The notes beneath the pieces are model-generated. The model was given only the letters and a program-made list of their open reading frames with translations, ran no database searches and was not told the DNA's origin. Below are positions 2,745 to 36,549 of a stretch of DNA of 64,000 nt, in pieces (the stretch's first letter is position 1; the number at the start of each line of letters is the position of its first letter). The DNA lies in the IMG/VR virus record IMGVR_UViG_3300045988_135886, one strand, 5' to 3'. This DNA comes from a virus. The translations under genes and the position numbers were made by a program.

Positions 2745-3608
2745 ATGGCGTTAATTCCAACCTGGTATTCTGCATCAACTAAGCAAATTGCAGAAAAGGC
2801 TTTACAAAGAGGGGTGCTAAAATACCCAGGACTTTGTTACATCCAAGACAGTAAGAGTATAGCGTGGGTGACCATCGACAACACATTAGAATATGTCAAA
2901 GGAGATAAACAGATTACAGATGTAAAATGCATCGGATCAAATCTTATGTTTTTCTCTGGAGATAAACTGCTTTTCTCTTATGACATATCTATGACTGACG
3001 AAGATAAAGGTCATATTATTGAAGAGGTCAAGAAAACAATCGGATTGGATAATTATGTCAAGTCTTCTGAGCTTTCTACTCTTTTAGATAATATAATCGG
3101 TAATCTTGAAGATAAGTCCACTGTTGTAGACTATATCAACAGCTTATCTTATAACAAATTATTTGACGTACCTATTGTAAATCTTATAGGTACACTTACT
3201 GTTCCTGTGAAGATATCATCACTCGATGATGGTATTTATAAAGTAAAAGGCCAATGTATCATTGGCGGAAACAATACTACTGTTCAATCTTCTGCAGACG
3301 ATGTTCTGTATCTTGTATCTCATGATGCTGATACTTCCAGCACAACAATCACAAAAATGCAAGGAAAATCTATTACATTGTATTTCATTCAGCAAGATGG
3401 TGAATATACGACTGATCGTTATGTCACTGAAAGCTGGATTAATGAACAGAATTTTGCAAGTGCTGATTCTGTAAAAGAATATGTTTCAAATATCATTGAA
3501 GAAACTGTTCTGGATGTTTTAGATGAACATATTGACTCTGCTTTAGACCGAAAACTCGGAGGTATTGATTCCGAAGATTTAACAAATATATTTCAAGGAG
3601 GAAACTAA
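2745..3608 (+). CDS. Hypothetical virion-module protein
   Basis: ORF tightly packed between neighbours with a GAGGTG SD. No recognisable motif. Confidence 0.45.
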   Translation: MALIPTWYSASTKQIAEKALQRGVLKYPGLCYIQDSKSIAWVTIDNTLEYVKGDKQITDVKCIGSNLMFFSGDKLLFSYDISMTDEDKGHIIEEVKKTIGLDNYVKSSELSTLLDNIIGNLEDKSTVVDYINSLSYNKLFDVPIVNLIGTLTVPVKISSLDDGIYKVKGQCIIGGNNTTVQSSADDVLYLVSHDADTSSTTITKMQGKSITLYFIQQDGEYTTDRYVTESWINEQNFASADSVKEYVSNIIEETVLDVLDEHIDSALDRKLGGIDSEDLTNIFQGGN

Positions 3609-3610
3609 TT

Positions 3611-4681
3611 ATGGCAAAATTACAGTTCGCTACACTTTCTAATCTTCAGGAGTTTTTAAATCTGCATAACGTACAGATCGACTCTAAAATCAGTGAGGCT
3701 GTCAAAAACTCAATTAAAACAGTATCTCAGTCAGAAGACGGATACACACTTTATTTCTACACAAAAACTGCTCCAGTAACTATTGATGAAGCAGCATTTA
3801 CTATTACTATTCCTCAGCCAACAGGAAAAGCTGACAAAGTAAAAGGTGCAGTAAAAGGTCATCTTGCAGGATTAGATGAAAATGGTAATCTGGTAGATTC
3901 TGGAAAGACTGTTGCAGATTTCGATGCTGCTGGCGCTGCTAACACAGCAAAAACAGAAGTAATGTCTTATGTTGGTACCATTCCTGCTGATGCAAAAGCT
4001 AAAAATGTAGTTGCTTATATCAAAGAAGCTGTTACTACTGGTCAGTATGATGATTCTGCATTAAAAGCAAGCGTTGCAGCTAATACAGCAGCTATTGGAA
4101 CACTGAATGGCACTGGTGACGGATCAGTAAAGAAAGCTGTTGCAGATGCAGTCGCTAAAATCGTCGCAGATGCTCCAGAAGCATATGATACACTGAAAGA
4201 GATTTCTGATTGGATTTCTACACATACATCTGATGCTGCTACAATGAATTCTCAGATCAAAACAAATAAAGAGGATATCACAAAGCTGAAGACTCTTATC
4301 GGTACTCTTCCAGAATCTGCTACATCTAAAGATATCGTAGGTTATATTGCAGAATACGTATCTAAAGCTCTTGCTGATTCTGATCTTTCTAAGTATGCAA
4401 AAGCTGCTGATCTTGAAGCTGCTGTAGGCAGAATTGATGCTATCGAAAAGAAATTACCTACATTAGAGGCTGCTGATAAAAAGAATGCCGAAGATATTAC
4501 TGCTGTTAAAGGTAGAATGGATACAGCGGAAGGCAAAATTACTGCTGTAGAAAAAGATCTTGCTACTGAAAAACCGAAGATTGCTAAAAACACATCTGAT
4601 ATTGCCGCTCTTAAGGGACTTGTTGGAGATGGATATGAAGCAATTCCAAGTGCGTCTATCAAAGGTTTATTTAGTGCGTAA
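3611..4681 (+). CDS. Ala/Lys/Asp-rich fibrous (coiled-coil-like) virion protein
   Basis: AAGGAGG SD. Long low-complexity helical segments such as 'AADLEAAVGRIDAIEKKLPTLEAADKKNAEDITAVKGRMDTAEGKITAVEKDLATEK'. Confidence 0.45.
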   Translation: MAKLQFATLSNLQEFLNLHNVQIDSKISEAVKNSIKTVSQSEDGYTLYFYTKTAPVTIDEAAFTITIPQPTGKADKVKGAVKGHLAGLDENGNLVDSGKTVADFDAAGAANTAKTEVMSYVGTIPADAKAKNVVAYIKEAVTTGQYDDSALKASVAANTAAIGTLNGTGDGSVKKAVADAVAKIVADAPEAYDTLKEISDWISTHTSDAATMNSQIKTNKEDITKLKTLIGTLPESATSKDIVGYIAEYVSKALADSDLSKYAKAADLEAAVGRIDAIEKKLPTLEAADKKNAEDITAVKGRMDTAEGKITAVEKDLATEKPKIAKNTSDIAALKGLVGDGYEAIPSASIKGLFSA

Positions 4682-4684
4682 AGT

Positions 4685-4701
4685 AAGGGGTTACTCCCCT
4701 T
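4685..4701 (+). terminator. Weak hairpin after the coiled-coil fibre gene
   Basis: AAGGGG-ttact-CCCCTT stem-loop 4 nt after the stop codon. The downstream T tract is poor (gctttaatt). Confidence 0.3.
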
Positions 4702-4732
4702 GCTTTAATTAAAGCGAAGGGATGTGCAGATA

Positions 4733-4990
4733 ATGAAAGAACAATTTCTTAATTTACAAGGTCTTACTGAGCTTGTTGATTATATTAAAAAATATATAGC
4801 TGATCAGCAAGAAGTCATCCCTTATGCATCTTATACATTGTTTCCAACAATTGGTAAAACAAACGCAATTTATGTGGACACAACCACAAATGCAATCTAT
4901 AGATGGGATGATAATAATATCAAATATTATGCATTGGCATTTGATCCTGAAAAGGAATTCATCATGCAATGCGGTAGCTCGAAAGGATGA
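4733..4990 (+). CDS. Hypothetical small protein
   Basis: The track ORF starts at GTG 4724. The ATG at 4733 has a GAAGGGA SD about 10 nt upstream. Confidence 0.4.
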   Translation: MKEQFLNLQGLTELVDYIKKYIADQQEVIPYASYTLFPTIGKTNAIYVDTTTNAIYRWDDNNIKYYALAFDPEKEFIMQCGSSKG

Positions 4991-4995
4991 TGTAA

Positions 4996-6765
4996 ATGGC
5001 TACACAGACATTGAATACTCGTATTGCCCTTAAATCGGATACAACCGCTAATTGGGCGAAATCTACGCTTGTTCTTTTAAAGGGTGAACAAGCGATTGAA
5101 ATTACAGAATCTGGTGCTTACAAAATTAAAATTGGTGATGGAGTTAAAACATTTGCTGAATTGCCATATGCAACTATGACACCAGAAGAAATCTCTGCAC
5201 TGATTGGTGATGGTTCAGTACAGAACGTAACTCTTGCTTCCGGTACTAACAACGGTACATTAAAACTGACTGTAGATGGAACAACTACAGATAATATTGC
5301 GGTAAAAGGATTAGGAAGTGCTGCATATACAAATACTTCTGCTTATGCAACTGCCGCACAGGGTGCTCTTGCTACAAACGCAGTCCGTAAAGTAGTTTCT
5401 GGCACTGCGAACGGTACAATCTCTGTAACAACAGGAACTGGAGCAGCAACAGATATAGCAGTAAAAGGATTGGGATCTGCTGCATATAAAGGAGCTGGAG
5501 CTTCACAGGGACAAGTTCCTGTAAATGGAGCCGCTCTTGGAACGACAGCCAATGTTCCTGTAGTAACAAATACTTCCGGACAGTTAGTTCCGCATGCCTC
5601 TGGTGCTCTTGGTTCTGCCGCATTTAAAGGTGCCGAGACATTTGCAACAGCTGCACAAGGTGCTAAAGCAGATAAATCAGTTCAGTCTGTATCTATTACT
5701 TCTGGAACTAATAACGGCACAATTAAATTAACTGTTAACGGCAATGCTACTGACAATATTGCTGTTAAAGGGCTAGGTTCTGCTGCTTACACAGCTTCAG
5801 GTGCCTATGCTACATCCGCTCAGGGTGCAAAAGCAGACGCGGCTATGCCAAAAGCCGGTGGTACATTCACAGGTACAGTAACGCTTGCAGCCGATCCAAC
5901 TGATGCTTTACAGCCAACAACAAAACAGTATGTAGATGCCAAAATTTCAAGTTCTATTGCTGCTTCTGATGCAATGGTGTTTAAAGGAACACTTGGAACT
6001 AATGGTACTGCTACTGCTCTTCCTACATCTTCTGTTGTAATAGGCGATACATATAAAGTAATTACTCAGGTTTCTGTAGTTGCTGATAATTCTTATACAG
6101 GAGCTGCTGTGACAGCTAAGGTCGGTGACTTAGTAGTCGCTATGTCAAAGGATCCAAAATGGATTGTTGTACCATCTGGTGATGAAATCGTTACTACTGT
6201 TAAGTATTCCACTACAACACAGAATCTTACAACAAGTGCTAAATCTGGAGAAATTACAGTAGGTGAAGCTGCTACAAAACAGGTAGATTCTTCTATCGCA
6301 GCCGCTTCTACTTCTACTAAGCTTCCAACTTCAAAAGCTGTTGCCGCTTTTGTTGAAGGAAAAGGTTACAAAACAACTGACCAGAAAGTAAAGAATACTC
6401 TTAATACTACTGCAAAGGCTTATGTAACTGGTACTACAAGTGCAACAACTGGTATTGGAGAACAGGTATTTGATACAGGTGTATATCTTGATACAACTGC
6501 TGGGAAACTTGTTGCTACTACTTTTGCAGGTGCTCTTCAGGGTAACGCAACGACTGCTACTTCTGCGGCTGCTTGTACAGGTAATGCTGCTTCTGCAACA
6601 AAACTTGCAGCATCAAGAAATTTCTCTCTTACTGGAGGTGCCGTTGCTGATGCTGTAGCATTTAACGGTGGAGGAAATGTTGCTCTTAGTGTTAAAAGTT
6701 TAAATACTGATTATTTAACTAATGGAGCCAATACTCTTATTTTAAATTGTGGGACATCTGTTTAA
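4996..6765 (+). CDS. Tail fibre protein with internal repeats
   Basis: The N-terminal motif 'LNTRIALKSDTTANWAKSTLVLLKGEQAIE..GDGVKTFAELPYA' is shared with the next gene. There are three copies of '..SGT.NGT(L/I)..T..G..TD(N)IAVKGLGSAAY..'. Composition is Ala/Thr/Gly-rich. Confidence 0.65.
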   Translation: MATQTLNTRIALKSDTTANWAKSTLVLLKGEQAIEITESGAYKIKIGDGVKTFAELPYATMTPEEISALIGDGSVQNVTLASGTNNGTLKLTVDGTTTDNIAVKGLGSAAYTNTSAYATAAQGALATNAVRKVVSGTANGTISVTTGTGAATDIAVKGLGSAAYKGAGASQGQVPVNGAALGTTANVPVVTNTSGQLVPHASGALGSAAFKGAETFATAAQGAKADKSVQSVSITSGTNNGTIKLTVNGNATDNIAVKGLGSAAYTASGAYATSAQGAKADAAMPKAGGTFTGTVTLAADPTDALQPTTKQYVDAKISSSIAASDAMVFKGTLGTNGTATALPTSSVVIGDTYKVITQVSVVADNSYTGAAVTAKVGDLVVAMSKDPKWIVVPSGDEIVTTVKYSTTTQNLTTSAKSGEITVGEAATKQVDSSIAAASTSTKLPTSKAVAAFVEGKGYKTTDQKVKNTLNTTAKAYVTGTTSATTGIGEQVFDTGVYLDTTAGKLVATTFAGALQGNATTATSAAACTGNAASATKLAASRNFSLTGGAVADAVAFNGGGNVALSVKSLNTDYLTNGANTLILNCGTSV

Positions 6766-6858
6766 ATGAAAGTGGCCTCTTTTATGGGGCTGCTTTACTA
6801 AATATGAAAATTATAGATTATATCTATTTAAATAAAAATTAAAAAAGGGAGGTGCACA

Positions 6859-8274
6859 ATGGGAGAACAAAATCTCAATATACGAATCAAACATAAATAT
6901 GATACGGAAGCTAATTGGAATAAAAATAATCCTGTTCTTTTAAGTGGAGAAATAGCAATTACAAGTGATAAATTCGGTAAACATAAAGTGGGAGATGGAA
7001 CACATAAATGGTCTGAACTATCTTATGCAAAAGCTGAACTTACAAAAGGCGATGTAACAGGCGCTCTTGGCTATACGCCTCCTTCAAGTGACACTTGGCG
7101 AGGTATTCAGGATAATCTAATAAGCAGCTCTACAACTGAGTCTCTATCTGCTGCACAGGGTAAAATATTAAAAGAGTTAGTTGACGGGAAAGCTCCGTCT
7201 TCACATACGCATACTAAAAGCGAAGTCGGATTAGGCAACGTTGACAATACTGCTGATGCCACAAAAAGTGTTAAATATGCTATTTCTGCAGGTAGCGCAT
7301 CATCTGCCGCTGCTCTTACTTCTAATGCTGGATCATCAACTCAGCCAGTATATTTCTCAGGTGGTAAACCAGTAGCTTGTTCATATACACTTGGTAAGTC
7401 AGTGCCTGCAGATGCATTATTTACCGATCATACTTATGGAAACATGAAGGGTGCTACTTCTTCTTCTGCCGGAAGTGCTGGTCTTGTTCCTGCACCTAAT
7501 ATAGGAGAACAATTAAAGTTTCTTCGTGCAGATGGTGCATGGGTAATCCCTACAAATACGACATATTCTGTAGGTACATCAAGTTACTTAGGAATAACTA
7601 AGCTTTATACTGAAACTGGGTCGGCTACAGATGGTACCATGACTCAAAATGCTATTACTTCTGCTCTTAACGGGAAATCTCCTACCTCTCATACGCACAA
7701 TTATGCAGGAAGTTCTTCTGCTGGCGGTGCTGCTACATCAGCAATTAAATTATCCACACCTAGAAAAATTGGTAACGCATCTTTTGATGGTACTGCTGAT
7801 ATTACCTTATCTCAGATGGGACTTAATGTTCCTGTTGAAATTACAAAAGCTAACTATCTTGCAAAAAAGAAAGCTGGAACTTTAAATGCAAATACCTATT
7901 ACAATGTTATTGATGAATATGATTCTGCAAATGTTATTAACGACTCATCTGTAACAGCCAACAGTGCGTTTTCAAGTACTAAATCAGAAAAAACATATGC
8001 GAAGAAAAGTACACTTGTTAATACTACTCTCACAGCAAGTAAATGGACTGGATCTTCTGCTCCATATAGTTATGTATTATCCGTATCTGGAGTAACTTCT
8101 TCAAATATTGTAGAAATAGATTATGCTTCTAATGCTTCATCTGCTGCTATTGAAGCTTATCAAAATGCAATGTTAGCTGACGGAGGACAGACTACAAATC
8201 AAATTACTATAAAAGCAACCGAGAAACCAACTGTAGATATTCCCATTACTATTGTTATAAGAAATGATTTATAA
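6859..8274 (+). CDS. Tail fibre protein (paralogous N-terminus)
   Basis: 'LNIRIKHKYDTEANWNKNNPVLLSGEIAI..GDGTHKWSELSYA' parallels the N-terminus of the 4996 gene. Fibre-type motifs include 'SHTHTKSEVGLGNVDNTADATK', 'SHTHNYAG' and 'KLSTPRKIGNASFDGTADIT'. Confidence 0.65.
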   Translation: MGEQNLNIRIKHKYDTEANWNKNNPVLLSGEIAITSDKFGKHKVGDGTHKWSELSYAKAELTKGDVTGALGYTPPSSDTWRGIQDNLISSSTTESLSAAQGKILKELVDGKAPSSHTHTKSEVGLGNVDNTADATKSVKYAISAGSASSAAALTSNAGSSTQPVYFSGGKPVACSYTLGKSVPADALFTDHTYGNMKGATSSSAGSAGLVPAPNIGEQLKFLRADGAWVIPTNTTYSVGTSSYLGITKLYTETGSATDGTMTQNAITSALNGKSPTSHTHNYAGSSSAGGAATSAIKLSTPRKIGNASFDGTADITLSQMGLNVPVEITKANYLAKKKAGTLNANTYYNVIDEYDSANVINDSSVTANSAFSSTKSEKTYAKKSTLVNTTLTASKWTGSSAPYSYVLSVSGVTSSNIVEIDYASNASSAAIEAYQNAMLADGGQTTNQITIKATEKPTVDIPITIVIRNDL

Positions 8275-8288: not shown

Positions 8289-8831
8289 ATGGCAATTTAT
8301 AAAGGTGAACAATGTCTTGCCGGAGTTGGTAAGAATGCAACTATTAAAATTGGTACTGCTAAAACAGGTACTTCGGCTGCGGTAACTAATTCTGGTACTG
8401 ATACAGATGCTATATTGAATTTTACATTACCTAAAGGTGATCAGGGAGTTGGAATTTCAAGTGTTATCCCTCATTATCTTGCAAGTCCTAAATCGCAGGG
8501 AGTGACCAGATCAACTACTGGATGGGCGACTTCCGCTCAAGTTATGACATCTACAAATAAATATTTGTGGTGTTATCATGAATTTGTTTTGACAAACAAT
8601 AATCATTTGTATACAGATGCAACCGTTATAGGTGTTTATGGAGATAAAGGTGATCCGGGTACAACTGATTACAATGGATTGAAGAATAAACCGGTCGTTA
8701 ATGGAGCTGTAACTGCTTATCAGTCAGATATTATGAAATCTCAGTTGAGAAATGTGACATTCTCTACTGAAGAACCTAAGACAACTGATGGTAAACCTGG
8801 TGATATGTGGGTGGTGTATGGCGATGAGTAA
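8289..8831 (+). CDS. Small fibre-associated protein
   Basis: AAGGAGG SD. Ends in 'EEPKTTDGKPGDMWVVYGDE', a motif repeated at the C-terminus of the 10606 gene. Its stop overlaps the start region of the next gene. Confidence 0.45.
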   Translation: MAIYKGEQCLAGVGKNATIKIGTAKTGTSAAVTNSGTDTDAILNFTLPKGDQGVGISSVIPHYLASPKSQGVTRSTTGWATSAQVMTSTNKYLWCYHEFVLTNNNHLYTDATVIGVYGDKGDPGTTDYNGLKNKPVVNGAVTAYQSDIMKSQLRNVTFSTEEPKTTDGKPGDMWVVYGDE

Positions 8832-10590
8832 TATTAAAACTGGAGATATATTGAACTTTGATTATACTGGTGCTGTTCAGAGCGTAACATTGAAACCTGG
8901 AAAATATGTGCTTGAGTGTTGGGGTGCTCAAGGTGGAAATGGATGTACGGGAAATTCATATAAAGGCGGTGCCGGAGGATATTCCAAAGGTACTCTCACA
9001 CTAGCCAAAACAGAAACTTTATACATATATGTTGGTGGACAAGGAGTTAGCGCTGCAGCTTCTGGCAATGGAAATATTCGAGAAGGTGGATTCAACGGTG
9101 GTGGATCTGGACGTGATTGGGGTAGTACTGGTAATGGCGGTGGCGGAGGTGGTGGCGCCTCTGATATTCGAATTATAACTGATAACTTCTATGCTCGTGT
9201 TATAGTCGCCGGCGCTGGTGGTGGAGCTTCTGATAATGGAGCAGGCGGTGCTGGCGGCGGCACTTCTGGGATTTCATCATCCTCTTCCGCTGGAACAGCA
9301 ACTGGAGGCAGCGGTTTTGGTCAAGCGGCGGCATCAAGTTACACTTCAGGTGAATGTGGTGGCGGTGGCGGTGGCTGGTATGGAGGTTATGGCGGATCCT
9401 CAGAAAATTATTCTGGCGGTGGTGGATCAGGTTATGTCTACACTTCTTCTTCTGCTTCTAACTACCCTTCTGGATGCCTACTAAATTCTACTTATTATCT
9501 TTCTAATGCTCAAACCATTGCAGGAAATCAAACTTTTAAATCGCCTACTAATACAAATGAAACCGGTCACTCTGGTAACGGCTATTGTCGAATTACTGTT
9601 ATTGAATGCAGTAATACAGCACTATATGTCAGAATAAACAATTCTATGAAAAAAGCTACTGCTTTCTATTTCAAATTAAATAACAACAAAATGTACGGTG
9701 TTGGTTCTGCTAATTATAATGGTTCTGTTATGAATTTTGATTATACTGGTTCGGTTCAAACTGCTACATTGACTCCTGGTACATATACAATAGAATGCTG
9801 GGGTGGCCAAGGAGGAAGTTATAATAGTTACATAGGCGGATATGGTGGTTACTCCAAAGGCACAATTACTCTTACTAAAGCAACTACTGTTTATATATCT
9901 GTTGGTGGAGCTGGATCTTCCTCTTCTACTGCTGCAGGATTCAATGGTGGAGGAACTGGTATTTCTTCTGGTAGAGGTGGTGGAGGAGCTACAGATGTTC
10001 GTATAGGTCAAAATTCTCTATATTCAAGAGTTATCGTAGCCGGAGGTGGCGGCGGAGCTGGTGTAACAAGTGCCAATGCTAATCCTTGTGGTTGTGGTGG
10101 TGGAGAATATGGTGGAGATGGCTATTATAATAACACTACCGGTTCTTATACTACTGGTCAAAATAGATCTGGCGGTAGTGCCTCACAAACTGCAGGTGGT
10201 ATAACTTGGAGTACAGGCACCCAGGCTACTTTTGGTCAAGGCGGAAATGCTTCCGGCTACTCTTGTGGTGGCGGCGGAGGCGGCTGGTATGGAGGCGGCG
10301 GAGCCTATGACAATGATTCTGACTCTGATGGACGTTGGGGTGGAGGAGGATCAGGATATGTTTATACCTCTTCTACAGCTAAAAATTACCCTAACGGATG
10401 CCTACTAAATTCTACTTATTATCTTTCTAATGCTCAAACCATCGCAGGAAACACTTCTTTTACTTCTCCTACAGGATCAGCAGAAACTGGTCACACAGGC
10501 AGTGGATTCTGCAGAATTACAAATTTGAACCCAACACAATATGGATTATACGTAAAAACGAACTCTGGTTGGAAACACATAGATTTATAA
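8824..10590 (+). CDS. Glycine-rich protein with two tandem ALK/LTK-type glycine-rich domains
   Basis: Two copies of 'FDYTG.VQ..TL.PG.Y..ECWG.QGG ... YVGG.G ... GFNGGG ... GGGA(S/T)D(I/V)RI ... ARVIVAGGGGG ... GGGGGWYGG ... GGGSGYVYT ... YYLSNAQTIAGN..F.SP....ETGH.G.G.CRIT'. The start was chosen at ATG 8824 (7 nt after GGGTGGTG). ATG 8818 is also possible. Confidence 0.7.
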   Translation: MSNIKTGDILNFDYTGAVQSVTLKPGKYVLECWGAQGGNGCTGNSYKGGAGGYSKGTLTLAKTETLYIYVGGQGVSAAASGNGNIREGGFNGGGSGRDWGSTGNGGGGGGGASDIRIITDNFYARVIVAGAGGGASDNGAGGAGGGTSGISSSSSAGTATGGSGFGQAAASSYTSGECGGGGGGWYGGYGGSSENYSGGGGSGYVYTSSSASNYPSGCLLNSTYYLSNAQTIAGNQTFKSPTNTNETGHSGNGYCRITVIECSNTALYVRINNSMKKATAFYFKLNNNKMYGVGSANYNGSVMNFDYTGSVQTATLTPGTYTIECWGGQGGSYNSYIGGYGGYSKGTITLTKATTVYISVGGAGSSSSTAAGFNGGGTGISSGRGGGGATDVRIGQNSLYSRVIVAGGGGGAGVTSANANPCGCGGGEYGGDGYYNNTTGSYTTGQNRSGGSASQTAGGITWSTGTQATFGQGGNASGYSCGGGGGGWYGGGGAYDNDSDSDGRWGGGGSGYVYTSSTAKNYPNGCLLNSTYYLSNAQTIAGNTSFTSPTGSAETGHTGSGFCRITNLNPTQYGLYVKTNSGWKHIDL

Positions 10591-10881: not shown

Positions 10882-10905
10882 AAGACTGAAAGGAAGGTGA
10901 GGCTT

Positions 10906-13347
10906 ATGGCTTGTTCTGGTGGATGTGGAACTTCTTGTTCTACTGACTGCACTCATTCATCATCTGGTGGATGTGGTGGTTCTTGTGGTGGTTCTTGCTC
11001 TACTAACTGTACTGGTGGATGTTCTGGATATTGTGATGGAACTTGTAAGGGAGGTTCAGGAAGTACTTGTTCTGACTGTACTGCCAAATGTGCTAATGAC
11101 TGTACCGGAGCTTGTACAAATGCTTGTGTAACCGGATGCACTGGCTGTGGGAACAACTGTGATGGAGACTGTACAAGCGCCTGTGCTCAAAGGTGCTCTA
11201 ATGATTGCAATGCTGCATGTACTGCTACTTGTGCTTATGATTGCGAACATACTTGCACTGCTTCTTGTGCCAACGACTGCACCAGTTGTGGTGGATCTTG
11301 CTCAAGTAATTGCTCAGGAAATTGTGATTCCGGTTGTTATACTGGTTGTTCCGGTTGTGATTCTACCTGTTCTGGATCCTGCACTGGTACTTGTAATACT
11401 ACTTGCACTACCACTTGTGCCAATGACTGCACTGGCGGGTGCAAAGGAACCTGTACAGGTGGATGTGGTGGTTCTTGTGATAATTCATGCGGCTTTTCTT
11501 GTGAAGCTTCATGTGATAACAATTGTACTGCTGTTTGTTCTGTATCTTCTGTGTATGGTGGAAACTCAGAGAAGAGTGTATTGAATTTTGCTTATACAGG
11601 TAAAGCTCAATCTGTAACCCTTGAGCCTGGAAAATATGTTCTTGAATGCTGGGGAGCACAGGGAGGTTATCGTTCTAATTCTAGTTATGGTGGAAAAGGT
11701 GGCTATTCTACAGGGACTTTAACATTGACTCAAAAAACTACTATATACATATATGTCGGTGGATCTGGAAATTCTGTTACATCAGCATCAAATTCAATCT
11801 ATCCCGGAGGTTTCAATGGTGGTGGATATAGATACAATTATAAAGGTGGTGGTGGCGCTACTGATATTCGTATTGGAAGTGCTTCTTTATATGCCCGTGT
11901 TATCGTTGCAGGTGGCGGTGGTTCTGATGGTAGTCCTAATTATAGTGGTGGGTATGCAGGTGGTGTATCTGGTACTAGGGGAAATTTTGGATGTGGTTCA
12001 TATGGATATGGTGGATCTCAAACTGCTTCATATTCATCTTTAAGTGCTATTAATTCACAAGGCACCACAAATTCTTCTTCTAACTGTGCTGCTGGTTTTG
12101 GTTTCGGTGGTTTTGGATGTTATTACGCTTCAGGTTACGGTGGAGCTGGCGGCGGAGGATGGTACGGTGGACAAGGTACTTATCCTGATGGTTCTGGAGA
12201 TGATGATGGCGGTGGCGGAGGTGGATCTGGTTACGTTTATACTTCCTCTTCTGCTTCTAACTATCCTCAAGGCTGTCTCCTAAATTCATCTTACTATCTT
12301 TCTGATGCTTCTAATTTATCTGGCAATGAATCTTTCAAATCTCCTTCTGGTGCTACAGAAACTGGTCATTCTGATAATGGCTATTGTAGGATTACCTGTT
12401 ATATCAAAAAGAAAACTCTACATTGTAAAATGAACAATGAAATTAAAAAAGCAGCTCCAGTATTTATGAAAATGAACAATAAAATTTATGATGCTGGCGC
12501 TAATGCTGTAATGGATTTTGCTTATACAGGAACAGCTCAAGCTATATCACTTCCAAGAGGAAAATATATTATAGAATGCTGGGGCGCTCAAGGCGGTTCA
12601 TATAGTAGTTATTATGGTGGTGCTGGAGGATATTCTGTCGGAACCATAACTCTAACTAAAAATTCTACGGATTTATATATTTATGTTGGTGGACAACCAG
12701 AAGCTACAACTTCAACAGGTGAAACACCTGGTGGATTTAACGGAGGAGGAAAAGGTTGTTCAAGAACTTATAATTATAGTAGTTATGGACAAGGTGGCGG
12801 CGGTGCAACCGATGTTCGTATAGGAAAAAATGATCTTTATGCTAGAGTTATTGTCGCTGGTGGCGGCGGAGGTTCATCATCAGAAAATTCGCTTACAACA
12901 AAATATGGCGGTGGAACTACTGGTGGTTCTTCTGCTTCTGGATATGGAGCTACACAAACTGCTGCAGGTACAAATGGTTCGTTTGGTCAAGGTGGTTCTG
13001 CAACAACTTCTGGAACTAATTATAATTATGGTTCCGGCGGTGGTGGAGGTGGATGGTATGGTGGTGGTGCATGTTCTGATTATAGTGACAGCACTAACTA
13101 CCAAGGCTATAATGGCGGAGGTTCAGGATATGTTTACACTTCAGCTACTGCTGCTAATTATCCAAGTGGTAATTATGTAAATTCTTCTTACTACCTTACC
13201 GATGCGCAAACTATAGCAGGAAATCAATCATTTAAATCACCTAATGGAACAAATGAAACAGGCCATACCGGAAATGGTTTCTGTCGTATCACACGTAAAT
13301 CAGGAAAAATATTTGTAAAACAAAACGGTTCATGGATCAAAGTATAA
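10906..13347 (+). CDS. Virion-module protein: N-terminal CXXX (Cys-every-4th-residue) array fused to two ALK-type glycine-rich domains
   Basis: The ATG at 10906 lies 8 nt after AGGAAGG (the track uses GTG 10897). The first ~210 aa contain 52 Cys, mostly spaced CX3. They are followed by two glycine-rich domain copies with the same motifs as the 8824 gene. Confidence 0.75.
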   Translation: MACSGGCGTSCSTDCTHSSSGGCGGSCGGSCSTNCTGGCSGYCDGTCKGGSGSTCSDCTAKCANDCTGACTNACVTGCTGCGNNCDGDCTSACAQRCSNDCNAACTATCAYDCEHTCTASCANDCTSCGGSCSSNCSGNCDSGCYTGCSGCDSTCSGSCTGTCNTTCTTTCANDCTGGCKGTCTGGCGGSCDNSCGFSCEASCDNNCTAVCSVSSVYGGNSEKSVLNFAYTGKAQSVTLEPGKYVLECWGAQGGYRSNSSYGGKGGYSTGTLTLTQKTTIYIYVGGSGNSVTSASNSIYPGGFNGGGYRYNYKGGGGATDIRIGSASLYARVIVAGGGGSDGSPNYSGGYAGGVSGTRGNFGCGSYGYGGSQTASYSSLSAINSQGTTNSSSNCAAGFGFGGFGCYYASGYGGAGGGGWYGGQGTYPDGSGDDDGGGGGGSGYVYTSSSASNYPQGCLLNSSYYLSDASNLSGNESFKSPSGATETGHSDNGYCRITCYIKKKTLHCKMNNEIKKAAPVFMKMNNKIYDAGANAVMDFAYTGTAQAISLPRGKYIIECWGAQGGSYSSYYGGAGGYSVGTITLTKNSTDLYIYVGGQPEATTSTGETPGGFNGGGKGCSRTYNYSSYGQGGGGATDVRIGKNDLYARVIVAGGGGGSSSENSLTTKYGGGTTGGSSASGYGATQTAAGTNGSFGQGGSATTSGTNYNYGSGGGGGGWYGGGACSDYSDSTNYQGYNGGGSGYVYTSATAANYPSGNYVNSSYYLTDAQTIAGNQSFKSPNGTNETGHTGNGFCRITRKSGKIFVKQNGSWIKV
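10912..11538 (+). repeat. Coding-level CXXX repeat array (TGT/TGC about every 12 nt)
   Basis: 52 Cys codons give 51 spacers: 45 of three residues, 4 of two (SD, TG, TS, SG) and 2 of seven (THSSSGG, KGGSGST). Spacers are almost entirely G/S/T/D/N/A. Confidence 0.9.
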
Positions 13348-13784: not shown

Positions 13785-13809
13785 TTAAGAATGAAAGGAA
13801 TATAAGGAT

Positions 13810-14148
13810 ATGAGAAAAATAATCGTAAAGATTGATAAAGAAAAAGCTACAGAGCTTGAAAGAGTTAATTTTGAATTAAACTTCGTAAAAGACATTGTAC
13901 AGAGAGTTATTGAATCACATCCAAGCGATTTAGAACTCATCAATGGAGATACTCTTATGTCTTACAATAAACGTGGTGCAGAATTACAGAGAAAGTATGC
14001 TGCTCTTGCAAATGAGATGGAAAAGGAATACATCCCAGAATACCTCGAAGGTCATCAGTATAGTTGGATTATTCCAAATAATTCTGATGAAATGACTATT
14101 ACTATTAAATGTAATTGTGAGATTCCAGAATTAGAGGAAATAGCATGA
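13810..14148 (+). CDS. Small acidic protein translationally coupled to the radical SAM gene (candidate maturase accessory protein)
   Basis: GAAAGGA SD. ATGA stop/start overlap with the radical SAM gene at 14145-14148. No catalytic motif. Ends '..TIKCNCEIPELEEIA'. Confidence 0.4.
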   Translation: MRKIIVKIDKEKATELERVNFELNFVKDIVQRVIESHPSDLELINGDTLMSYNKRGAELQRKYAALANEMEKEYIPEYLEGHQYSWIIPNNSDEMTITIKCNCEIPELEEIA

Positions 14149-16544
14149 AAAGGACAGAACAATATTCGGATCAGATAGCTAGACTTTATCCATCTAAGAA
14201 GGTAAAAACCGATGACGGACAAAGAATATTAACACAGAGTATCACTTTTCAAGTAACTGATGATTGTAACCTTGCATGTAGTTATTGCCTTAGTGGAGAT
14301 ACAAAAATCCGTATGGCAGATTATTCGTTAAAATCAATCAAAGATATTCAGTTGGGAGATAAAGTGTTAGGATTTGAGGAATATCCTCAAAAAGGGAAAC
14401 AGACTAAGGTAATTGTTTCAGACGTAGAGAAATTATATTGTCATGAAGCATCAACTATCGAGTTAACATTTAATGACGGACAAATTCTTAATATTACTCC
14501 TAATCATAAAATTTTAGTTCGAAGAAATTCTTATGATAATAGATATGACTATGTTGAAGCTGGTAAACTAAATATAGGCAGTGAAGTGTATTACCTCCCT
14601 ATTATTGATTCAAAATTACATATAGAAGAGCCGATACATGACATAAATTATAAAATAGGATACCTTATTGCAATGATTAAAGGTGACGGTTCATTAAAAC
14701 ATTATAATCGAAAGTCTGATGGTTGTGATGTATTCAAGTTTAGAATAGCTGTAAAAGATACGGAAATAATCGAACGTTGTAAGAAGTATCTTGATGATTT
14801 AGATATTCCGGTTTATTTGAAACCGTATAATGTATCTAAAAAATACGATATATGGAACAATGCTATTTTTGCAAATACAAGATACGTATATAATAAATTA
14901 AATCAATTAATTAGCGATAATTTCTCTCAAAATACTTCTCTTTCATATTATCAAGGATATCTTGCAGGATTTTACGATGCTGAAGGTCATATTTCAAAAG
15001 AACGTGTTATCAGAATTTGCAATACAGATATTAAGATGATTAATGAGGCTACCTTAGGATTGGATTTGTTAAAGATTCCATACATAATCGAAGTTGATGC
15101 AAAAGGAACTGTGAATAAACCATTAAAATACAATATTCGAATAACTGATAACTTAAATTCTATATCTACATATCGTTTTATCAAATCTGTTCATCCAGCA
15201 ATAAAAAGAAAATCTTTTGATAATTTCCTTAATTATTCTCCATTAAAAAAGACTAAAATTATAGATATAAAAAAAAATCCTATTAGTACTACGGTATATA
15301 ACATAGGAACTTCATCTCGTACTTATATCGCAAACACTATTGCTGTACATAATTGTTACCAAGGACATAAAGGAAAAAATCGAATGTCGTTTGAAACAGC
15401 TAAGAAATTCTTTGATTTAGTTGTATCAGGTGAAAAAGGTTTTAAATCTTATATCAATCCAGAGAAATCTCCTGGATTGGTTGTAGATTTCATTGGAGGA
15501 GAACCTTTTCTTGAGATAGAGCTTATAGATCAAATCTGTACTTATATTATGGATAAACTCATAGAGTTGGATCATCCTTGGGCCATGAAAACTATGTTCT
15601 CTATTTGTTCAAATGGTGTTTTATACAGGGACGAAAAAGTACAAGCATTTCTTCGTAAGTGGGCCAATAGATTATCTTTCTCAGTTACTATTGATGGGAA
15701 TAAAGAATTACATGATTCCTGTCGAGTATTCCCAGATGGCAGTCCAAGTTATGACATAGCTGTCGATGCTGCGTCTGATTGGATGAAACGTGGAAATCAT
15801 ATGGGAAGCAAGATCACAATTGCTCCAGGTAATATCAGCTTTCTATACGATGCTATTAAGCATATGGTCGATCTTGGATATGATGAAATCAATGCCAATT
15901 GTGTATATGAAAAGGGTTGGACACCTGTACATGCAACTGTTCTTTACGATCAAATGAAACGCATATCTGATTATTTCTTGGAACAGAATTTTGATTTTGA
16001 ACGTGATTTCTTCTGTTCCCTTTATAATGAAGATTTCTTTCATCCTAAAGATCCTGATGATTTACAAAGCTGGTGCGGAGGCGTTGGTAATTCAATGATT
16101 GCTTGCGATCCTCAAGGTCGCATATTTCCATGTATCAGATATATGGAATCTTCTCTTAATGGAGAGCAAGAACCGTACTCTATTGGTGATGTAGATAATG
16201 GTATAGGATGCACAGAATGTTATAAATGCAGAATTAATTGTATGGCAAAAATAGATAGAAGGACACAGAGTACAGATGAATGTTTCTATTGTCCTATAGC
16301 TGCAGGATGTTCTAATTGTTCTGGTTATGATTATCAAGTGAATGGTACTCCTGACTCAAAAGCTACTTATATATGTGTTATGCATAAAGCTCGTGCTCTT
16401 GGAAACCTGTATTTCTGGAATAAATATTATAGAAAAAATAATATGAATAAACGAATGAAAAACTATGTGCCAGATGAATGGGCGCTTGAGATTATTTCTG
16501 AATCAGAACTTAATATGTTGAAAGAACTTGAAAGAGAGGATTAA
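14145..16544 (+). CDS. Radical SAM / SPASM-domain enzyme (anSME/peptide-maturase-like) interrupted by an intein
   Basis: After removing the intein the cluster motif reads 'CNLACSY|CYQGH' (CX3CX2C). Also present: 'DFIGGEPFL', 'SICSNG' and a C-terminal Cys-rich SPASM-like region ('CGGVGNSMIACDPQGRIFPCIRY', 'CFYCPIAAGCSNCSG'). Confidence 0.8.
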   Translation: MKRTEQYSDQIARLYPSKKVKTDDGQRILTQSITFQVTDDCNLACSYCLSGDTKIRMADYSLKSIKDIQLGDKVLGFEEYPQKGKQTKVIVSDVEKLYCHEASTIELTFNDGQILNITPNHKILVRRNSYDNRYDYVEAGKLNIGSEVYYLPIIDSKLHIEEPIHDINYKIGYLIAMIKGDGSLKHYNRKSDGCDVFKFRIAVKDTEIIERCKKYLDDLDIPVYLKPYNVSKKYDIWNNAIFANTRYVYNKLNQLISDNFSQNTSLSYYQGYLAGFYDAEGHISKERVIRICNTDIKMINEATLGLDLLKIPYIIEVDAKGTVNKPLKYNIRITDNLNSISTYRFIKSVHPAIKRKSFDNFLNYSPLKKTKIIDIKKNPISTTVYNIGTSSRTYIANTIAVHNCYQGHKGKNRMSFETAKKFFDLVVSGEKGFKSYINPEKSPGLVVDFIGGEPFLEIELIDQICTYIMDKLIELDHPWAMKTMFSICSNGVLYRDEKVQAFLRKWANRLSFSVTIDGNKELHDSCRVFPDGSPSYDIAVDAASDWMKRGNHMGSKITIAPGNISFLYDAIKHMVDLGYDEINANCVYEKGWTPVHATVLYDQMKRISDYFLEQNFDFERDFFCSLYNEDFFHPKDPDDLQSWCGGVGNSMIACDPQGRIFPCIRYMESSLNGEQEPYSIGDVDNGIGCTECYKCRINCMAKIDRRTQSTDECFYCPIAAGCSNCSGYDYQVNGTPDSKATYICVMHKARALGNLYFWNKYYRKNNMNKRMKNYVPDEWALEIISESELNMLKELERED
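14286..15353 (+). mobile_element. Intein (356 aa) with LAGLIDADG homing-endonuclease domain
   Basis: Begins 'CLSGDTKIRMADYS' (block A) and ends 'AVHN' followed by a +1 Cys. Two LAGLIDADG motifs are present ('IGYLIAMIKGDGSL', 'YLAGFYDAEGHI'). It is in frame with no stop codons. Confidence 0.85.
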
Positions 16545-16561: not shown

Positions 16562-16584
16562 TGACTAAAAGGAGGCTTGATATT

Positions 16585-24844: not shown

Positions 24845-25114
24845 TTAATATTCCTCATAGTCAGTCTCATCACTGATATTTAATTTATGTTTCTCAGCTT
24901 CATGTACTTTATTCAATGCGACTTTTTTACTATCAAATACTACTTCTCCTACAGTATTAAATCCTAAGAGATACTCATGTTTATCTCTTTTATCCATACC
25001 TACAAAGTAGGTGTCTGTGACTGTACGAACAGTCAAATCACAGACATCATAGATACCTACTGTAGGGAAAATTCTTGTATAATAGAGCTTGTCACCTTTT
25101 TCTATTACTTTCAT
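24845..25114 (-). CDS. Hypothetical protein
   Basis: ORF with a 1-nt overlap with the RNR gene stop. No motif. Confidence 0.35.
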   Translation of the reverse strand: MKVIEKGDKLYYTRIFPTVGIYDVCDLTVRTVTDTYFVGMDKRDKHEYLLGFNTVGEVVFDSKKVALNKVHEAEKHKLNISDETDYEEY

Positions 25115-27363
25115 TAATCACATTTACTCCATCCACAATTCTTGCAAGTGTTACAGCCACCTTCAAAGACTAATTCTCCACCACACTGAGGACATTTCGC
25201 CTTAGAAACTGGTACAATTTTAGGTGTAATAACTTCTAATTCTTTTTCTTCAATATCTGAAAAACCTACTTCATCCATCATCTCTTCATACATTTCAAGA
25301 AGAGCATTTCCAATAGCTACAGGGCAACTGCTGCCTTTAGATGTATCGTGCTTAGTAGCTGTTCTAACCGCATATGATGGACAGGTACCAGAAGATTTTA
25401 ACTGATCTACTATGGAATAAACATCAATTCCGCCTCTAGCTGCCAAAGAAATCATTCTCGAAAGTCCAATCATAAAATTATTACACCCACCGGAAGACCC
25501 TTTACTGAAATAAGTTTCAAGCAACTGGCCATTGTCTGGATCAAAGAAAGCTTCACAATGGAGTGTTCCACAACCTGTCCTAAGAGTTCTCTTTTTGCCA
25601 ATGCAATTATCATCTGCTTTGATGATCATTCCTCTTTCTAATCTGTGAGGTTTTTCTACAATATCTTCTACATTCTCTTTAATAGTAAGAATACCTGCAC
25701 GTTTACATCCATCTCTAAAGATAGTTACACCTTTTAATCCTGCATCCCATGCAGTCATGTATAATCCTTCCACCTGTTCAACTGTAAAATCATTTGGAAC
25801 ATTAACAGTAGAACTGATAGATGCATCAATGTGTGACTGCCAAATACTTTGCATATAGATTCTGTTCTTATAATCCAGTGTCTGAGCTGTTACAAAGTAA
25901 TCTGGTAATTCAGAATCATCTTTTAATCCATGTTTATCCATATATTCTTTTACAATTGAAGTGTAGACTTTATAATATTCATCATGACCTTTAAGAGACT
26001 CTGTTTTTCTTGTATAGTAGTTTGCAAAAATAGGTTCAATACCACCAGACACACCAAGCATAGTTGAAAGAGATCCAGTTGGTGCAATTGTAAGTAACTG
26101 AGAGTTTCTAAGTCCAAATGATTCTACTAATTCTTTTGTTTCTCCTAATGCATTTTTACTATAAAACGCTGATTGTTCTACCGCTTCTGGTTTATATTTA
26201 GGATATACACCATATTCTTTTGCTAACACAGCAGATGTTTTAATTGCCATATCTGCCATAGTATGTCCAATCATGTCACATAAATCAATGGCTTCTGGAC
26301 TACCATATTTAATTCCCAGTTTAATAAGCAAATCGGCAAGACCAAAGATTCCAAGTCCAATCTGTCTCCAATCATATACAGATTCTCTTTGTTCTTTTAA
26401 TGGATGGAGTGGAAGTCCTTCATCTAATACTTCATTTAATGCAATAACAGACGATTTGACACAATGCTTAAAACTCTCAAAATCAAATCCTGTATCACAT
26501 GCAAATTCAGCTAGGTTAATGCTACCAAGAAGGCATGAACCTCCCGCTGGCAAAGGTTCTTCTGCGCATGGATTTGTTCCTGCATATTCAAACTCATCAT
26601 CACAACTAAGTAAATTCCAGTTATTGATTCTGTCCCAGAAAAGCATTCCAGGTTCAGCATAATCCCAGTTCATTTCACACATTTTATGAAACATTTCATA
26701 TGCATCAATTTCTTTAGTGATGGTTTCTCCTGTTTCTAACCTAGTAAATGATAAAGTAAATGGAGTTTTATTCTTTACCGCAGCCATAAACTTGTCTGTA
26801 ATTCTAATAGAAATATTAGCTTTTGTGACTCTATCAAGGTCTGATTTAATACCAATAAACTCTTCTAAGTCTGGATGCTCACATGAAAGACTAAGCATTA
26901 AAGCTCCTCTACGTCCCGCTTGCCCGATTAATCCAGTAACCATAGAATATAAGTCCATAAATGATACAGAACCAGTTGTTTCTTTAGCGGCATTATTGAC
27001 CTTTGCACCTCTTGGAGATAATTTACTAATATCAACTCCACATCCACCACCATAGCTATATGTACGAGCAAGTTTTTTAGCGCAGTCAAAGATACTTTCA
27101 ATATTGTCTTCCGGTGGTTCAATTACATAGCAATTACTGAGACTAATTTTACGTCCTTTATTCTCAAGACCTCTATTAGCAAGAATGCGACCTCCAAATA
27201 AGAACTTTTTCTCTTTAATTAAATTAGCAATTTCTGAATTTCCACCAGATACACGATTAATCCACTCATCAAAAGTTTCATTTTCATATCTGTATTTTCT
27301 TTCCCAAATATCTTGTCCTAATTGATTCTCTGTTCCTAACCATTCCTGTACTGTCATACACAT
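25114..27363 (-). CDS. nrdJ: Class II (adenosylcobalamin-dependent) ribonucleotide reductase
   Basis: 'LSNCYVIEPPEDNIESIF', 'GGGCGVDISKLSPRGA', 'GTNPCAEEPLPAGGSCLLGSINL' and the C-terminal Zn-ribbon 'CPQCGGELVFEGGCNTCKNCGWSKC' are characteristic of monomeric class II RNRs. Confidence 0.8.
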   Translation of the reverse strand: MCMTVQEWLGTENQLGQDIWERKYRYENETFDEWINRVSGGNSEIANLIKEKKFLFGGRILANRGLENKGRKISLSNCYVIEPPEDNIESIFDCAKKLARTYSYGGGCGVDISKLSPRGAKVNNAAKETTGSVSFMDLYSMVTGLIGQAGRRGALMLSLSCEHPDLEEFIGIKSDLDRVTKANISIRITDKFMAAVKNKTPFTLSFTRLETGETITKEIDAYEMFHKMCEMNWDYAEPGMLFWDRINNWNLLSCDDEFEYAGTNPCAEEPLPAGGSCLLGSINLAEFACDTGFDFESFKHCVKSSVIALNEVLDEGLPLHPLKEQRESVYDWRQIGLGIFGLADLLIKLGIKYGSPEAIDLCDMIGHTMADMAIKTSAVLAKEYGVYPKYKPEAVEQSAFYSKNALGETKELVESFGLRNSQLLTIAPTGSLSTMLGVSGGIEPIFANYYTRKTESLKGHDEYYKVYTSIVKEYMDKHGLKDDSELPDYFVTAQTLDYKNRIYMQSIWQSHIDASISSTVNVPNDFTVEQVEGLYMTAWDAGLKGVTIFRDGCKRAGILTIKENVEDIVEKPHRLERGMIIKADDNCIGKKRTLRTGCGTLHCEAFFDPDNGQLLETYFSKGSSGGCNNFMIGLSRMISLAARGGIDVYSIVDQLKSSGTCPSYAVRTATKHDTSKGSSCPVAIGNALLEMYEEMMDEVGFSDIEEKELEVITPKIVPVSKAKCPQCGGELVFEGGCNTCKNCGWSKCD

Positions 27364-35187: not shown

Positions 35188-36549
35188 ATCTGGCATCTCT
35201 GGTCTACTGGCATGTAAATGCCTCCACCAAGGGATGTTATATTTTAAAGGATTAATTTGTTGCAAATTTATAAGATATGATATATAAAAAGAAGCAATAG
35301 ATCCTCGTGATGGACCAACTAAAGATCCCCCACCATCTTCTGAGTCATCCCACATCATATTGATAATATCCAATGCTGTAATATAATAAGAAGAAACTCT
35401 ATCATTTAATTTTTCACTGGTTTCCCAAATGGCTCCCAACTCATCATTAATTCTTAACATCATTGATTTTATTTCTTCTTTTGTAAGTGACTCCGAATAT
35501 TGCTTTGTCCACCATCCATCTTCGATAAGATATAATAAATATCTGTCACTCTTTTCCTTTGAGTAGGCAAAATTCTTAATATAAGGACAAAAGTCATAAG
35601 CTGTTTCAAAAGAATGACTCATTGTAAATTCTGGTATTTTAGCTTTAGGTACAATTTGTGTATGATACAAGTCATACTCTTCAACCTTCTCACCAATCTC
35701 CAGAGAACACTTCAATGCATCTTCCACTTCTTCATACCCAAGATAATCCATCCTCTGATGAATTTGCTCATTGGTCATCATCCAAGTTGATTCATAGAAA
35801 TCACCTAACTCTCTTTCTTCATCATCGCGACTGTTAAGATAAGCAGCATGAATTTCTCTATCCTCTTGTTTCAAATAGTGAACATCACAGGCAATAGTAG
35901 CTTTTATTCCTAATTGATGCTTTAATTTTACAATCTCTCGATTCAACTTTATCTGTTCTTCTGACAGCCCCGGTTGCATTTCTAAATAGAAATCTTTACC
36001 AAATAACTGCTGGTTCCAGAGGAGAAAATCCATATAATTTTCTCCTGCCAATAGAGACTTGCCTAATTCTCCTCCTAAACATGCTGTCGTTGAAATCAGA
36101 TGTCCAGGATTAGATTTAACCACATGTTCCAGATCACTTTTCAATGTAGGAACACGTTCCATCCTTCCTGTATAAAAACTGTTATCCCATGCTAATGAAC
36201 TAAGTTCTCTTAACTGCTTATGCCCTATTTCATCTTTAGCCAGAAGAATATAATGATAAAATGGAGAATCACAAGACTTCTTTCCATCTTCTGATATATT
36301 TAATTTGTCAACTAAATATATTTCATTACCAAGTATTCCTTTGAAATCTTCCGGCAGTTCACCGGAAGACTTCATGGATTTAATTGTTTGAATAAATCTC
36401 ACATGACCAGATACAGACTCATGGTCAGTGATAGCAACTCCTGAAAGTCCAAGAGATGCAGCTTGTTTTATTAATTGAGGTACTTTTACGATGCAGTCCA
36501 ACATACGAAGCTGACTAAATTCTGTATGCGCATGTGTCTCTATTCTCAC
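35188..36549 (-). CDS. dnaE: DNA polymerase III alpha subunit (DnaE-type), exon 1 (PHP domain and start of the polymerase core)
   Basis: PHP motifs 'HAHTEFSQL..D' and 'GVAITDHESVSGH'. The exon ends '...WWRHLHASRPEMPD'. The track ORF then runs 7 more codons into the intron before a stop. Confidence 0.75.

Follow-up and report, generated by a model that had tools for sequence, protein, structure and literature searches.

A phage gene for a radical S-adenosylmethionine (SAM) peptide maturase carries a canonical class-1 LAGLIDADG intein immediately before the third cysteine of its CX3CX2C motif: very probably a primarily selfish element, for which we infer both protein splicing and endonuclease activity. 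The gene lies on a 64,000-nucleotide stretch of viral DNA (IMG/VR record IMGVR_UViG_3300045988_135886), hereafter the window, and the maturase belongs to the family described by the NCBIfam model TIGR04115.

The precursor and its splice junction

The maturase open reading frame (ORF; 14145..16544, + strand) encodes 799 amino acids, and the insert occupies nt 14286..15353 (1068 nt, 356 aa; protein residues 48-403). Across the insert the precursor reads TDDCNLACSY[CLSGDT...IAVHN]CYQGH; excision in silico leaves 443 aa joined as ...TDDCNLACSY/CYQGH... (a slash marks the insertion point throughout). At the DNA level the 5′ junction is GAT GAT TGT AAC CTT GCA TGT AGT TAT / TGC CTT AGT GGA GAT ACA and the 3′ junction GCT GTA CAT AAT / TGT TAC CAA GGA CAT. 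Cys48 (TGC, 14286-14288) is Cys1 of the intein, which closes with His402-Asn403 (CAT AAT, 15348-15353). The +1 residue is Cys404 (TGT, 15354..15356), whose column is invariant in alignments; it is the predicted splice nucleophile and, after splicing, would be the third Cys of CX3CX2C.

The N-extein (aa 1-47, 14145..14285, + strand) ends in ...TDDCNLACSY and equals the N-terminus of an intein-less allele, P0001, save for the change L46S. The string CNLACSYC (14265..14288, + strand) comprises Cys41, Cys45 and Cys48 of the intein, the stretch C45-S-Y-C48 forming a CXXC pair between Cys-3 and Cys1. The C-extein (aa 404-799 plus stop, 15354..16544, + strand) contains the remainder of the radical SAM barrel, including GGEP (15489-15509), and two SPASM-type Cys motifs: WCGG...GRIFPC (16071-16133) and CFYCPIAAGCSNC (16281-16319).

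A preliminary description of this locus, made from the letters of the sequence alone, had proposed a LAGLIDADG intein at 14286-15353 before the third Cys of CX3CX2C, a +1 Cys that doubles as the third iron-sulfur (Fe-S) ligand, and a spliced product of 443 aa. Its sequence, coordinates and arithmetic are all correct on re-reading the DNA. Profiles, predicted fold and empty-site alleles agree on the intein; excision restores CX3CX2C exactly; and natural intein-less alleles encode exactly 443 aa. The further claim, that the cluster site is split by 356 residues before splicing, holds in part: the true ligand C404 is displaced, but the precursor itself still spells CX3CX2C (C41, C45 and intein C48), the intein starting with Cys. 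Read in this way, the intein parts CX3CX2C from the remainder of the barrel, and C404, as true third ligand, from C41 and C45.

Intein-less alleles and the host enzyme

The spliced product has 99% identity to P0001 and 98% to P0002, two intein-less proteins of 443 aa that read CNLACLYCYQGH at the junction. Alignment of the extein junction with these homologues – a check that the preliminary description had suggested – shows CX3CX2C to be precisely restored. Four intein-less contigs, which encode P0001, are 97-98% identical to the window over 9730-14287 and 15352-18870, with a clean gap of 1068 bp in between. In L001 (about 6100-6180) the empty allele reads GCATGTCTATATTGTTACCAAGGACAC. Gene order is common to the window and all four contigs: a CXXX-repeat/glycine-rich protein, a 132-aa ORF, a 112-aa ORF and the maturase, followed by a GH25-CHAP-SH3 endolysin, a 182-aa ORF and an integrase. 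Alleles of one phage gene with and without the intein circulate at 97-99% identity: a natural test system in which each is a near-perfect control for the other. Among GenBank phages a megablast search with the locus gave no match, and tblastn with the extein returned homologues only at ∼36% identity or less.

TIGR04115 is the NCBIfam family 'radical SAM peptide maturase, CXXX-repeat target family', most members of which are ∼440 aa long. The protein spliced in silico matches this model in one stretch from end to end (model 1-359/359; 523.7 bits, with the cut-off at 350), as against two stretches for the 799-aa precursor. Three Cys motifs are present: CNLACSYC (after splicing), C-x13-G-x4-C (WCGG...GRIFPC) and CX2CX5CX2C. 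The Pfam SPASM model does not match the window maturase, although it does match a relative, P0243. Given the position of the insert, dependence of the maturase on splicing is a sound, if sequence-based, expectation.

Features of the insert

Intein profiles from both Pfam and NCBIfam match the insert well beyond what chance would give, an outcome that bears out the profile scan suggested in the preliminary description. The Pfam matches are Hint (1.5e-9), LAGLIDADG_3 (1e-9, in two stretches), Intein_splicing and Hom_end_hint; from NCBIfam, TIGR01445 (intein_Nterm) exceeds its cut-off.

The N-terminal splicing region (14286..14519, + strand), defined by Pfam Hint and TIGR01445, opens with block A, CLSGDTKIRM (14286-14315), whose nucleophilic first residue, Cys48, is conserved among relatives. 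It closes with block B, NITPNHKILV (14490-14519; intein residues 69-78), which has the Thr-x-x-His motif expected of inteins (TPNH, residues 71-74); Thr and His are both conserved in at least 90% of aligned relatives. The C-terminal splicing region (15288..15353, + strand) consists of block F, TTVYNIGTSSRTYIAN, and block G, TIAVHN, with its penultimate His and terminal Asn; at the junction, IAVHN/C, alignment A2 shows no variation in V, H, N or C.

Between the two lies the LAGLIDADG endonuclease core (14655..14993, + strand), delimited by the two LAGLIDADG_3 stretches, by an alignment with PI-PfuI that spans both motifs, and by structural matches to I-DmoI. Motif 1, IGYLIAMIKGDGSL (14655-14696), and motif 2, YQGYLAGFYDAEGHI (14949-14993), each retain the acidic residue, as is evident from their cores IGYLIAMIKGDG and YLAGFYDAEG.

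Prediction of the structure from the single sequence gave a mean predicted local distance difference test (pLDDT) score of 31.5, and a model based on an alignment was used instead. This AlphaFold (AF2) model, built from 11 sequences, has a pLDDT of 83.7 and a predicted template modelling score (pTM) of 0.69. As modelled, the insert has both a HINT fold and the alpha-beta-beta-alpha-beta-beta-alpha fold of the endonuclease. The best Foldseek matches in the PDB are all intein homing endonucleases (TliVMA, PI-PfuI, PI-SceI, PhoVMA and PI-TkoII; E 3e-17 to 3e-11). Many I-DmoI entries rank next; these match the central domain with target-normalised template modelling (TM) scores of 0.72-0.82 and a root-mean-square deviation of ∼2.7-4.3 Å. 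The intein is also foreign in composition, its G+C content of 28.5% being lower than the 35.0% of the exteins. All of this identifies the insert as a class-1 intein of canonical form with a two-motif LAGLIDADG homing endonuclease, for which both splicing and DNA cleavage are predicted.

Signatures of mobility

Exact look-ups place the 799-aa protein in a 90% cluster of 151 member sequences. One member is found on 216 contigs and carries the Joint Genome Institute (JGI) name 'radical SAM peptide maturase (CXXX-repeat target family)'. Empty alleles fall into clusters of 43 and 964 sequences, the larger being that of P0002. The notion that the occupied allele is absent from the protein collection, or rare in it, was rejected on the strength of its 151-sequence cluster.

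Differences between occupied and empty alleles are not confined to the intein but extend into short flanks (14267..15368, + strand). The changes are TGC>TGT at 14267, CTA>AGT at 14280-14282 (L46S) and CAC>CAT at 15368: five substitutions that sit no more than 19 nt upstream or 15 nt downstream of the insertion, the next mismatches being 148 nt upstream and 333 nt downstream. This clustering is significant (Fisher p = 5e-5), and the substitutions are what one would expect either of co-conversion in homing or of immunising changes in the target site.

The same intein is also found in a diverged maturase allele, P0136. Here the intein differs from that of the window at 6 of 1068 nt (0.6%), whereas the N-extein differs at 18 of 141 nt and the C-extein at 173 of 1191 nt (13-15% divergence); identity falls away no more than 9 nt before the 5′ end of the intein and 6 nt past its 3′ end. 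The same disparity is apparent in the protein, with 2 differences in 356 intein positions against 37 in 443 extein positions (Fisher p = 5e-8). P0145 is a milder case (9/356 against 24/443). Because the C-extein differences between P0136 and the window are mostly synonymous (120, against 53 non-synonymous), the host genes of both intein-bearing lineages are under purifying selection; such selection on the maturase is expected only if the protein functions, and therefore the intein is expected to splice.

The 15 cluster members that were read contain no frameshifts or stops and differ from one another at only 15 of the 356 intein positions. Mini-inteins, relatives that occupy this site without an endonuclease, were found in P0080, P0123, P0125 and P0130, as expected from the intein life cycle. 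The sequence comparisons support the view that the intein is mobile now, or was very recently, and has spread horizontally; the population data together support an active, selfish homing intein. If so, the locus provides a clean case of ongoing intein homing in human-gut phages.

Insertion sites across the maturase family

An exhaustive HMMER search of 1.84 billion cluster representatives, with P0001 as the query, returned 385 proteins at E ≤ 1e-30. Of the top 150, 49 match in two to four separate stretches and are up to 1402 aa long. Insertion sites were mapped onto P0001 for 47 of the 49 multi-stretch proteins together with earlier matches; the automatic pairwise aligner misparsed some of the multi-intein proteins, and their junctions were read by eye. 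The estimated intein occupancy of ∼30% is biased upward, in that representatives chosen at 50% identity may favour long proteins.

There are at least six insertion points in the family, each directly N-terminal to a Cys within or adjoining an Fe-S motif, the ligands having been assigned from motifs rather than structures. In P0001 numbering, the site before C41, where the +1 residue is the first Cys of CX3CX2C, is occupied in P0233. Occupants of the site before C45 (+1, the second Cys) are P0097, P0168, P0232, P0239, P0243 and P0282, with P0164, P0296 and P0297 added by eye; the site immediately after C45, where a Cys substituted at position 46 provides the +1 residue, is used in P0003, P0010 and P0015. 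The site before C48 (+1, the third Cys) is occupied in ∼28 proteins including that of the window. The remaining two sites fall in the SPASM-type motifs: one before C288 (W/CGG, the first Cys of the CX9-15GX4C SPASM signature), with 21 cases cleanly resolved and ∼12 more by eye, the other before C369 (+1, the last Cys of CX2CX5CX2C), with 16. At each site the splice nucleophile would itself be an Fe-S ligand, or adjoin one, and mini and endonuclease-bearing versions both exist.

Several proteins carry more than one intein. P0297 has four Hint modules (1402 aa in all, with an extein of ∼440 aa), P0164 and P0167 have three each, and in P0164, P0296 and P0297 two inteins lie three residues apart inside CX3CX2C. 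A separate arrangement is seen in P0243, residues ∼190-487 of which read as tandem inteins at a single site, CSLT[CFAEDT...YMAHN][CLVAGS...LSQHN]CRYCYE, with Hint N-terminal matches at ∼190 and ∼332. On this reading Cys1 of the second intein would act as the +1 residue of the first; to our knowledge no such arrangement has been described. One practical consequence concerns annotation: many of the 'long' radical SAM maturases of metagenomes (570-1400 aa) are an intein-laden enzyme of ∼440 aa, and should be spliced in silico before they are classified.

A proposed mechanism and its alternatives

Splicing would begin with an N-S acyl shift at the carbonyl of Tyr47, effected by Cys48 (Cys1). The resulting thioester would be attacked by Cys404 (+1) in a trans-thioesterification; cyclisation of Asn403, assisted by His402, would then release the intein, and an S-N shift would join Tyr47 to Cys404, recreating CNLACSYC. 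The 443-aa product could then bind its [4Fe-4S]/SAM cluster and modify the adjacent CXXX-repeat domain. The freed 356-aa intein, for its part, is predicted to cut intein-less alleles site-specifically at a target around ...TGCATGTCTATAT/TGTTACCAAGG..., encountered during co-infection or when phage meets prophage, and repair from the occupied allele would copy the intein together with a few flanking bases. The site may be favoured because its DNA is conserved across alleles, because a Cys at +1 is guaranteed, and because imprecise loss destroys the enzyme. The intein would thereby sit where its host is unable to alter the sequence, the +1 Cys being indispensable.

Several observations weigh against this interpretation. 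Block F (SSRTYIAN, VYNIG) departs from the expected His/Asp pattern, with Arg for the usual His and Asn for the usual Asp: nearly all relatives in the alignment have xxHTY where the intein has SSRTY, and Asp is the common residue at the position of the Asn. These replacements could slow C-terminal cleavage. Recombination between co-infecting phages could also, without any endonuclease, produce high intein identity across divergent exteins. Lastly, the allele frequencies come from exact look-ups only, and a word-index search omitted the protein's own cluster. As regards block F, the deviation is common variation and is not disqualifying on its own.

The alternative that fares best – although we consider it improbable – grants the intein but makes it conditional, extending a redox switch proposed in the preliminary description. 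A disulfide between C45 and C48 or between C48 and C404, or a metal or cluster held by C41, C45 and C48, would block the first splicing step. Production of the oxygen-labile maturase would then require reducing conditions, and the phage would keep the intein for this benefit; we would be somewhat surprised if this proved to be so. MoaA, like the maturase, is a radical SAM enzyme, and its intein in Pyrococcus abyssi offers a precedent for redox control. In two reviews that cite Callahan et al. 2011 (PMC3922620 and PMC10663303), a native disulfide between Cys-3 and Cys1 of that intein is reported to block splicing until it is reduced, and is presented as protecting the oxygen-labile enzyme. The window intein has the corresponding extein Cys at -3 to Cys1 (C45-S-Y-C48), a geometry inherent to every intein at the third-Cys site, because Cys45 is an essential ligand. 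All six intein sites in the family, moreover, place a Cys within or adjoining an Fe-S motif at +1.

Other points speak against such control. The need for Cys at +1 together with conserved target DNA accounts for the choice of site without regulation. The intein is dispensable, because alleles without it, 98-99% identical to the spliced product, match or exceed the occupied one in diversity and abundance (the 964-member cluster). The related contigs come from gut metagenomes, where the hosts, presumably anaerobic, would have a cytoplasm that is reducing at all times, and the comparison with P0136 resembles selfish homing. By analogy with MoaA a redox switch is plausible for the window intein, but its use in a gut phage is less obvious.

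The same considerations bear on the family as a whole. In phage CXXX-repeat maturases inteins have taken up almost all of the Fe-S-ligand cysteines, and the six sites might reflect coupling rather than mere tolerance, such that the thiols that ligate the cluster also splice, and redox state, Fe-S supply or metal gates maturation, by way of a C45-C48 disulfide or of zinc or a cluster bound to C41, C45 and Cys1: a proposal that we regard as having a small chance of being right. If true, gating of this kind would time the activation of an oxygen-labile maturase during infection. Whether native inteins are conditional (redox or metal) switches or purely selfish has long been argued, and with occupied and empty alleles to hand the question becomes directly testable.

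A second alternative is that the insert is an intein by descent that can no longer splice, leaving a non-functional maturase allele that the phage manages without. The departures in block F (Arg for His; Asn where Asp is common) are what such decay might look like, and splicing of the window intein is itself deduced from sequence. Yet Cys1, TxxH, His-Asn and Cys+1 are all intact, as are the endonuclease motifs; no frameshift or stop was found in the 15 cluster members, with variation at just 15 of 356 positions; and divergence between the exteins of intein-bearing lineages is mostly synonymous (120:53). A splicing-dead intein is thus a very improbable account. The idea that these 356 aa form a normal accessory domain in this family of enzymes, for which nothing speaks beyond its being an in-frame insert, can be dismissed, because four contigs lack exactly these 1068 bp in DNA that is otherwise 97-98% identical, alleles 98-99% identical lack exactly the 356 aa, family members are mostly ∼440 aa, and the profiles and fold are those of an intein with a LAGLIDADG endonuclease.

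The putative substrate and its phage context

Two genes upstream of the maturase, at 10897..13347 (+ strand), lies the likely substrate: an 816-aa protein with CXXX repeats followed by two glycine-rich domains of ALK/LTK type, recognised from its Cys periodicity and from ALK_LTK_GRD matches. Its first 214 aa contain 52 Cys at a period of four (∼50 CXXX repeats); there is a weak match to TIGR04117 and, on homologues, a faint one to PF27846. The gene sits among tail-fibre genes and the synteny of the CXXX-repeat protein is kept in all related contigs. Presumably the substrate is the 214-aa N-terminal CXXX-repeat domain of this glycine-rich and probably tail-associated protein. A phage structural protein cross-linked by the phage's own radical SAM enzyme would, if true, be of interest in itself; in the literature we found no biochemical characterisation of CXXX-repeat modification. 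A paralogue at 8788..10590 (+ strand) has the glycine-rich domains without the CXXX region.

The 112-aa ORF (13810..14148, + strand) runs into the maturase gene, its stop codon and the maturase start overlapping in ATGA. Every related contig retains this ORF; Pfam, NCBIfam and PHROG gave no match to it, and its product may assist the maturase system as a partner or chaperone. On the other side of the maturase, position 16544 abuts the start of the lysin. In L036 and L037, of the lineage whose maturase is 13-15% diverged but shares the intein, a gene for a 337-aa GIY-YIG/NUMOD1 free-standing homing endonuclease (6492..7505) stands between maturase and endolysin, where the window has none.

The window belongs to a large temperate phage, with related contigs of 160-196 kb that derive from human-gut samples, for example a Hadza metagenome (L037). 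It also encodes tail-fibre-like proteins, an endolysin, an integrase, a class II ribonucleotide reductase (RNR), RecD2, DnaB, a P-type ATPase and a nicotinamide phosphoribosyltransferase (NAMPT). The P-type cation ATPase (53501..56122, - strand) and the nicotinamide/nicotinate phosphoribosyltransferase (61171..62646, - strand) are unusual cargo. RNR is a classic intein host; that of the window, a class II-type enzyme with a TSCPD domain (25114..27363, - strand), has no intein.

The gene for the DNA polymerase III alpha subunit (31368..36549, - strand) is split: 35164..36549 encodes the PHP domain and the start of the NTPase, and 31368..33794 the rest. Between the two pieces are a 294-aa LAGLIDADG_3 ORF (34252..35136) and a match to the Group I intron model RF00028 (33943..34194) that is full-length but sub-threshold (30.6 bits against a gathering cut-off of 50, E = 1.9e-5). 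The interruption is probably a group I intron with its own homing endonuclease. A relationship between this LAGLIDADG ORF and the intein endonuclease was considered and rejected: nothing is shared beyond the motif.

Relationship to known systems

Homologous inteins precede the third Cys of CX3CX2C in other proteins. Among CXXX-family maturases, mini-inteins occur at this site in P0080, P0121, P0123, P0125, P0130/131, P0313, P0315 and P0318-P0320, and endonuclease inteins in P0308, P0311 and L009 (a Clostridium sp. metagenome-assembled genome; 48% identity). The same site is occupied in two PapB-like SPASM enzymes (P0128, L013), in P0122, a SPASM enzyme of no assigned class whose intein is 45% identical through the endonuclease domain, in RlmN/Cfr-like methyltransferases, where it reads CPVRCQF[C...HN]CATG (P0127, P0129, P0307 and P0310), and in P0323. 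Same-site inteins are common in such metagenomic radical SAM proteins outside the CXXX family. They share 27-48% identity with the window intein over the full length, or 35-67% over the N-terminal region, and their junctions follow the pattern C..xC.{2}[C...HN]C. They differ from that of the window in their host families, and mostly are mini-inteins or have diverged endonucleases; none is annotated, and we found no description of them.

In the L009 maturase (NZ_JAENWM010000003.1, 2806..6231) LAGLIDADG inteins occupy both the third-Cys site of CX3CX2C and the W/CGG site, and removal of the two gives a product that scores 404.9 bits on TIGR04115. The occurrence of this maturase in Clostridium hints at a host range among the Clostridia.

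Beyond the maturase family a described relative is the curated NCBIfam model NF038136, 'intein-containing Rv2578c family radical SAM protein'. Protein residues 40-407 align with model positions 68-338, and the intein (1-356) with 76-334; the alignment has the intein starting at Cys1 and ending at Asn403 and sets DCNLACSY on the eight preceding positions, which implies an equivalent point of insertion in another radical SAM family. The score, however, is 69 bits against a cut-off of 700: the host enzyme belongs to another family, and only the intein and the motif region align. The preliminary description had suggested that an intein at the cluster-binding triad of a SPASM maturase was undescribed. 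This stands insofar as no open paper was found for a SPASM maturase, nor, in the open literature, one that ties inteins to CX3CX2C or to 4Fe-4S ligands; it does not stand for radical SAM enzymes at large, given NF038136 and the related same-site inteins. On inteins in radical SAM proteins the two MoaA reviews were the only relevant literature found.

With the TIGR04115 family the window gene shares a full-length (spliced) enzyme and a CXXX-repeat protein two genes upstream; it differs in being phage-encoded and interrupted by an intein, and in having as putative substrate a domain of an 816-aa, probably structural, protein rather than a small peptide.

The MoaA intein of P. abyssi is a related system with experimental data. 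According to the two reviews, a native extein Cys at -3 can pair with Cys1, the C-x-x-C spacing being that of C45 and C48 in the window; MoaA, however, is archaeal, chromosomal and not a SPASM peptide maturase, whereas the window case is known from its sequence. A genome scan with the pattern YIANx[IVF]xVHN did not return Pyrococcus, and no named MoaA was among the results of the profile search.

In architecture the window intein resembles PI-SceI, PI-PfuI and TliVMA/PhoVMA, in which a HINT splicing domain is likewise split by a two-motif LAGLIDADG endonuclease. Identity to these is 12-16%, and they are longer (∼450 aa against 356) and reside in V-ATPase or RNR hosts, not in radical SAM enzymes. 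Conserved active-site motifs are the normal habitat of inteins, and the present case is one more: a real new example of a known element, for which precedent among radical SAM proteins exists.

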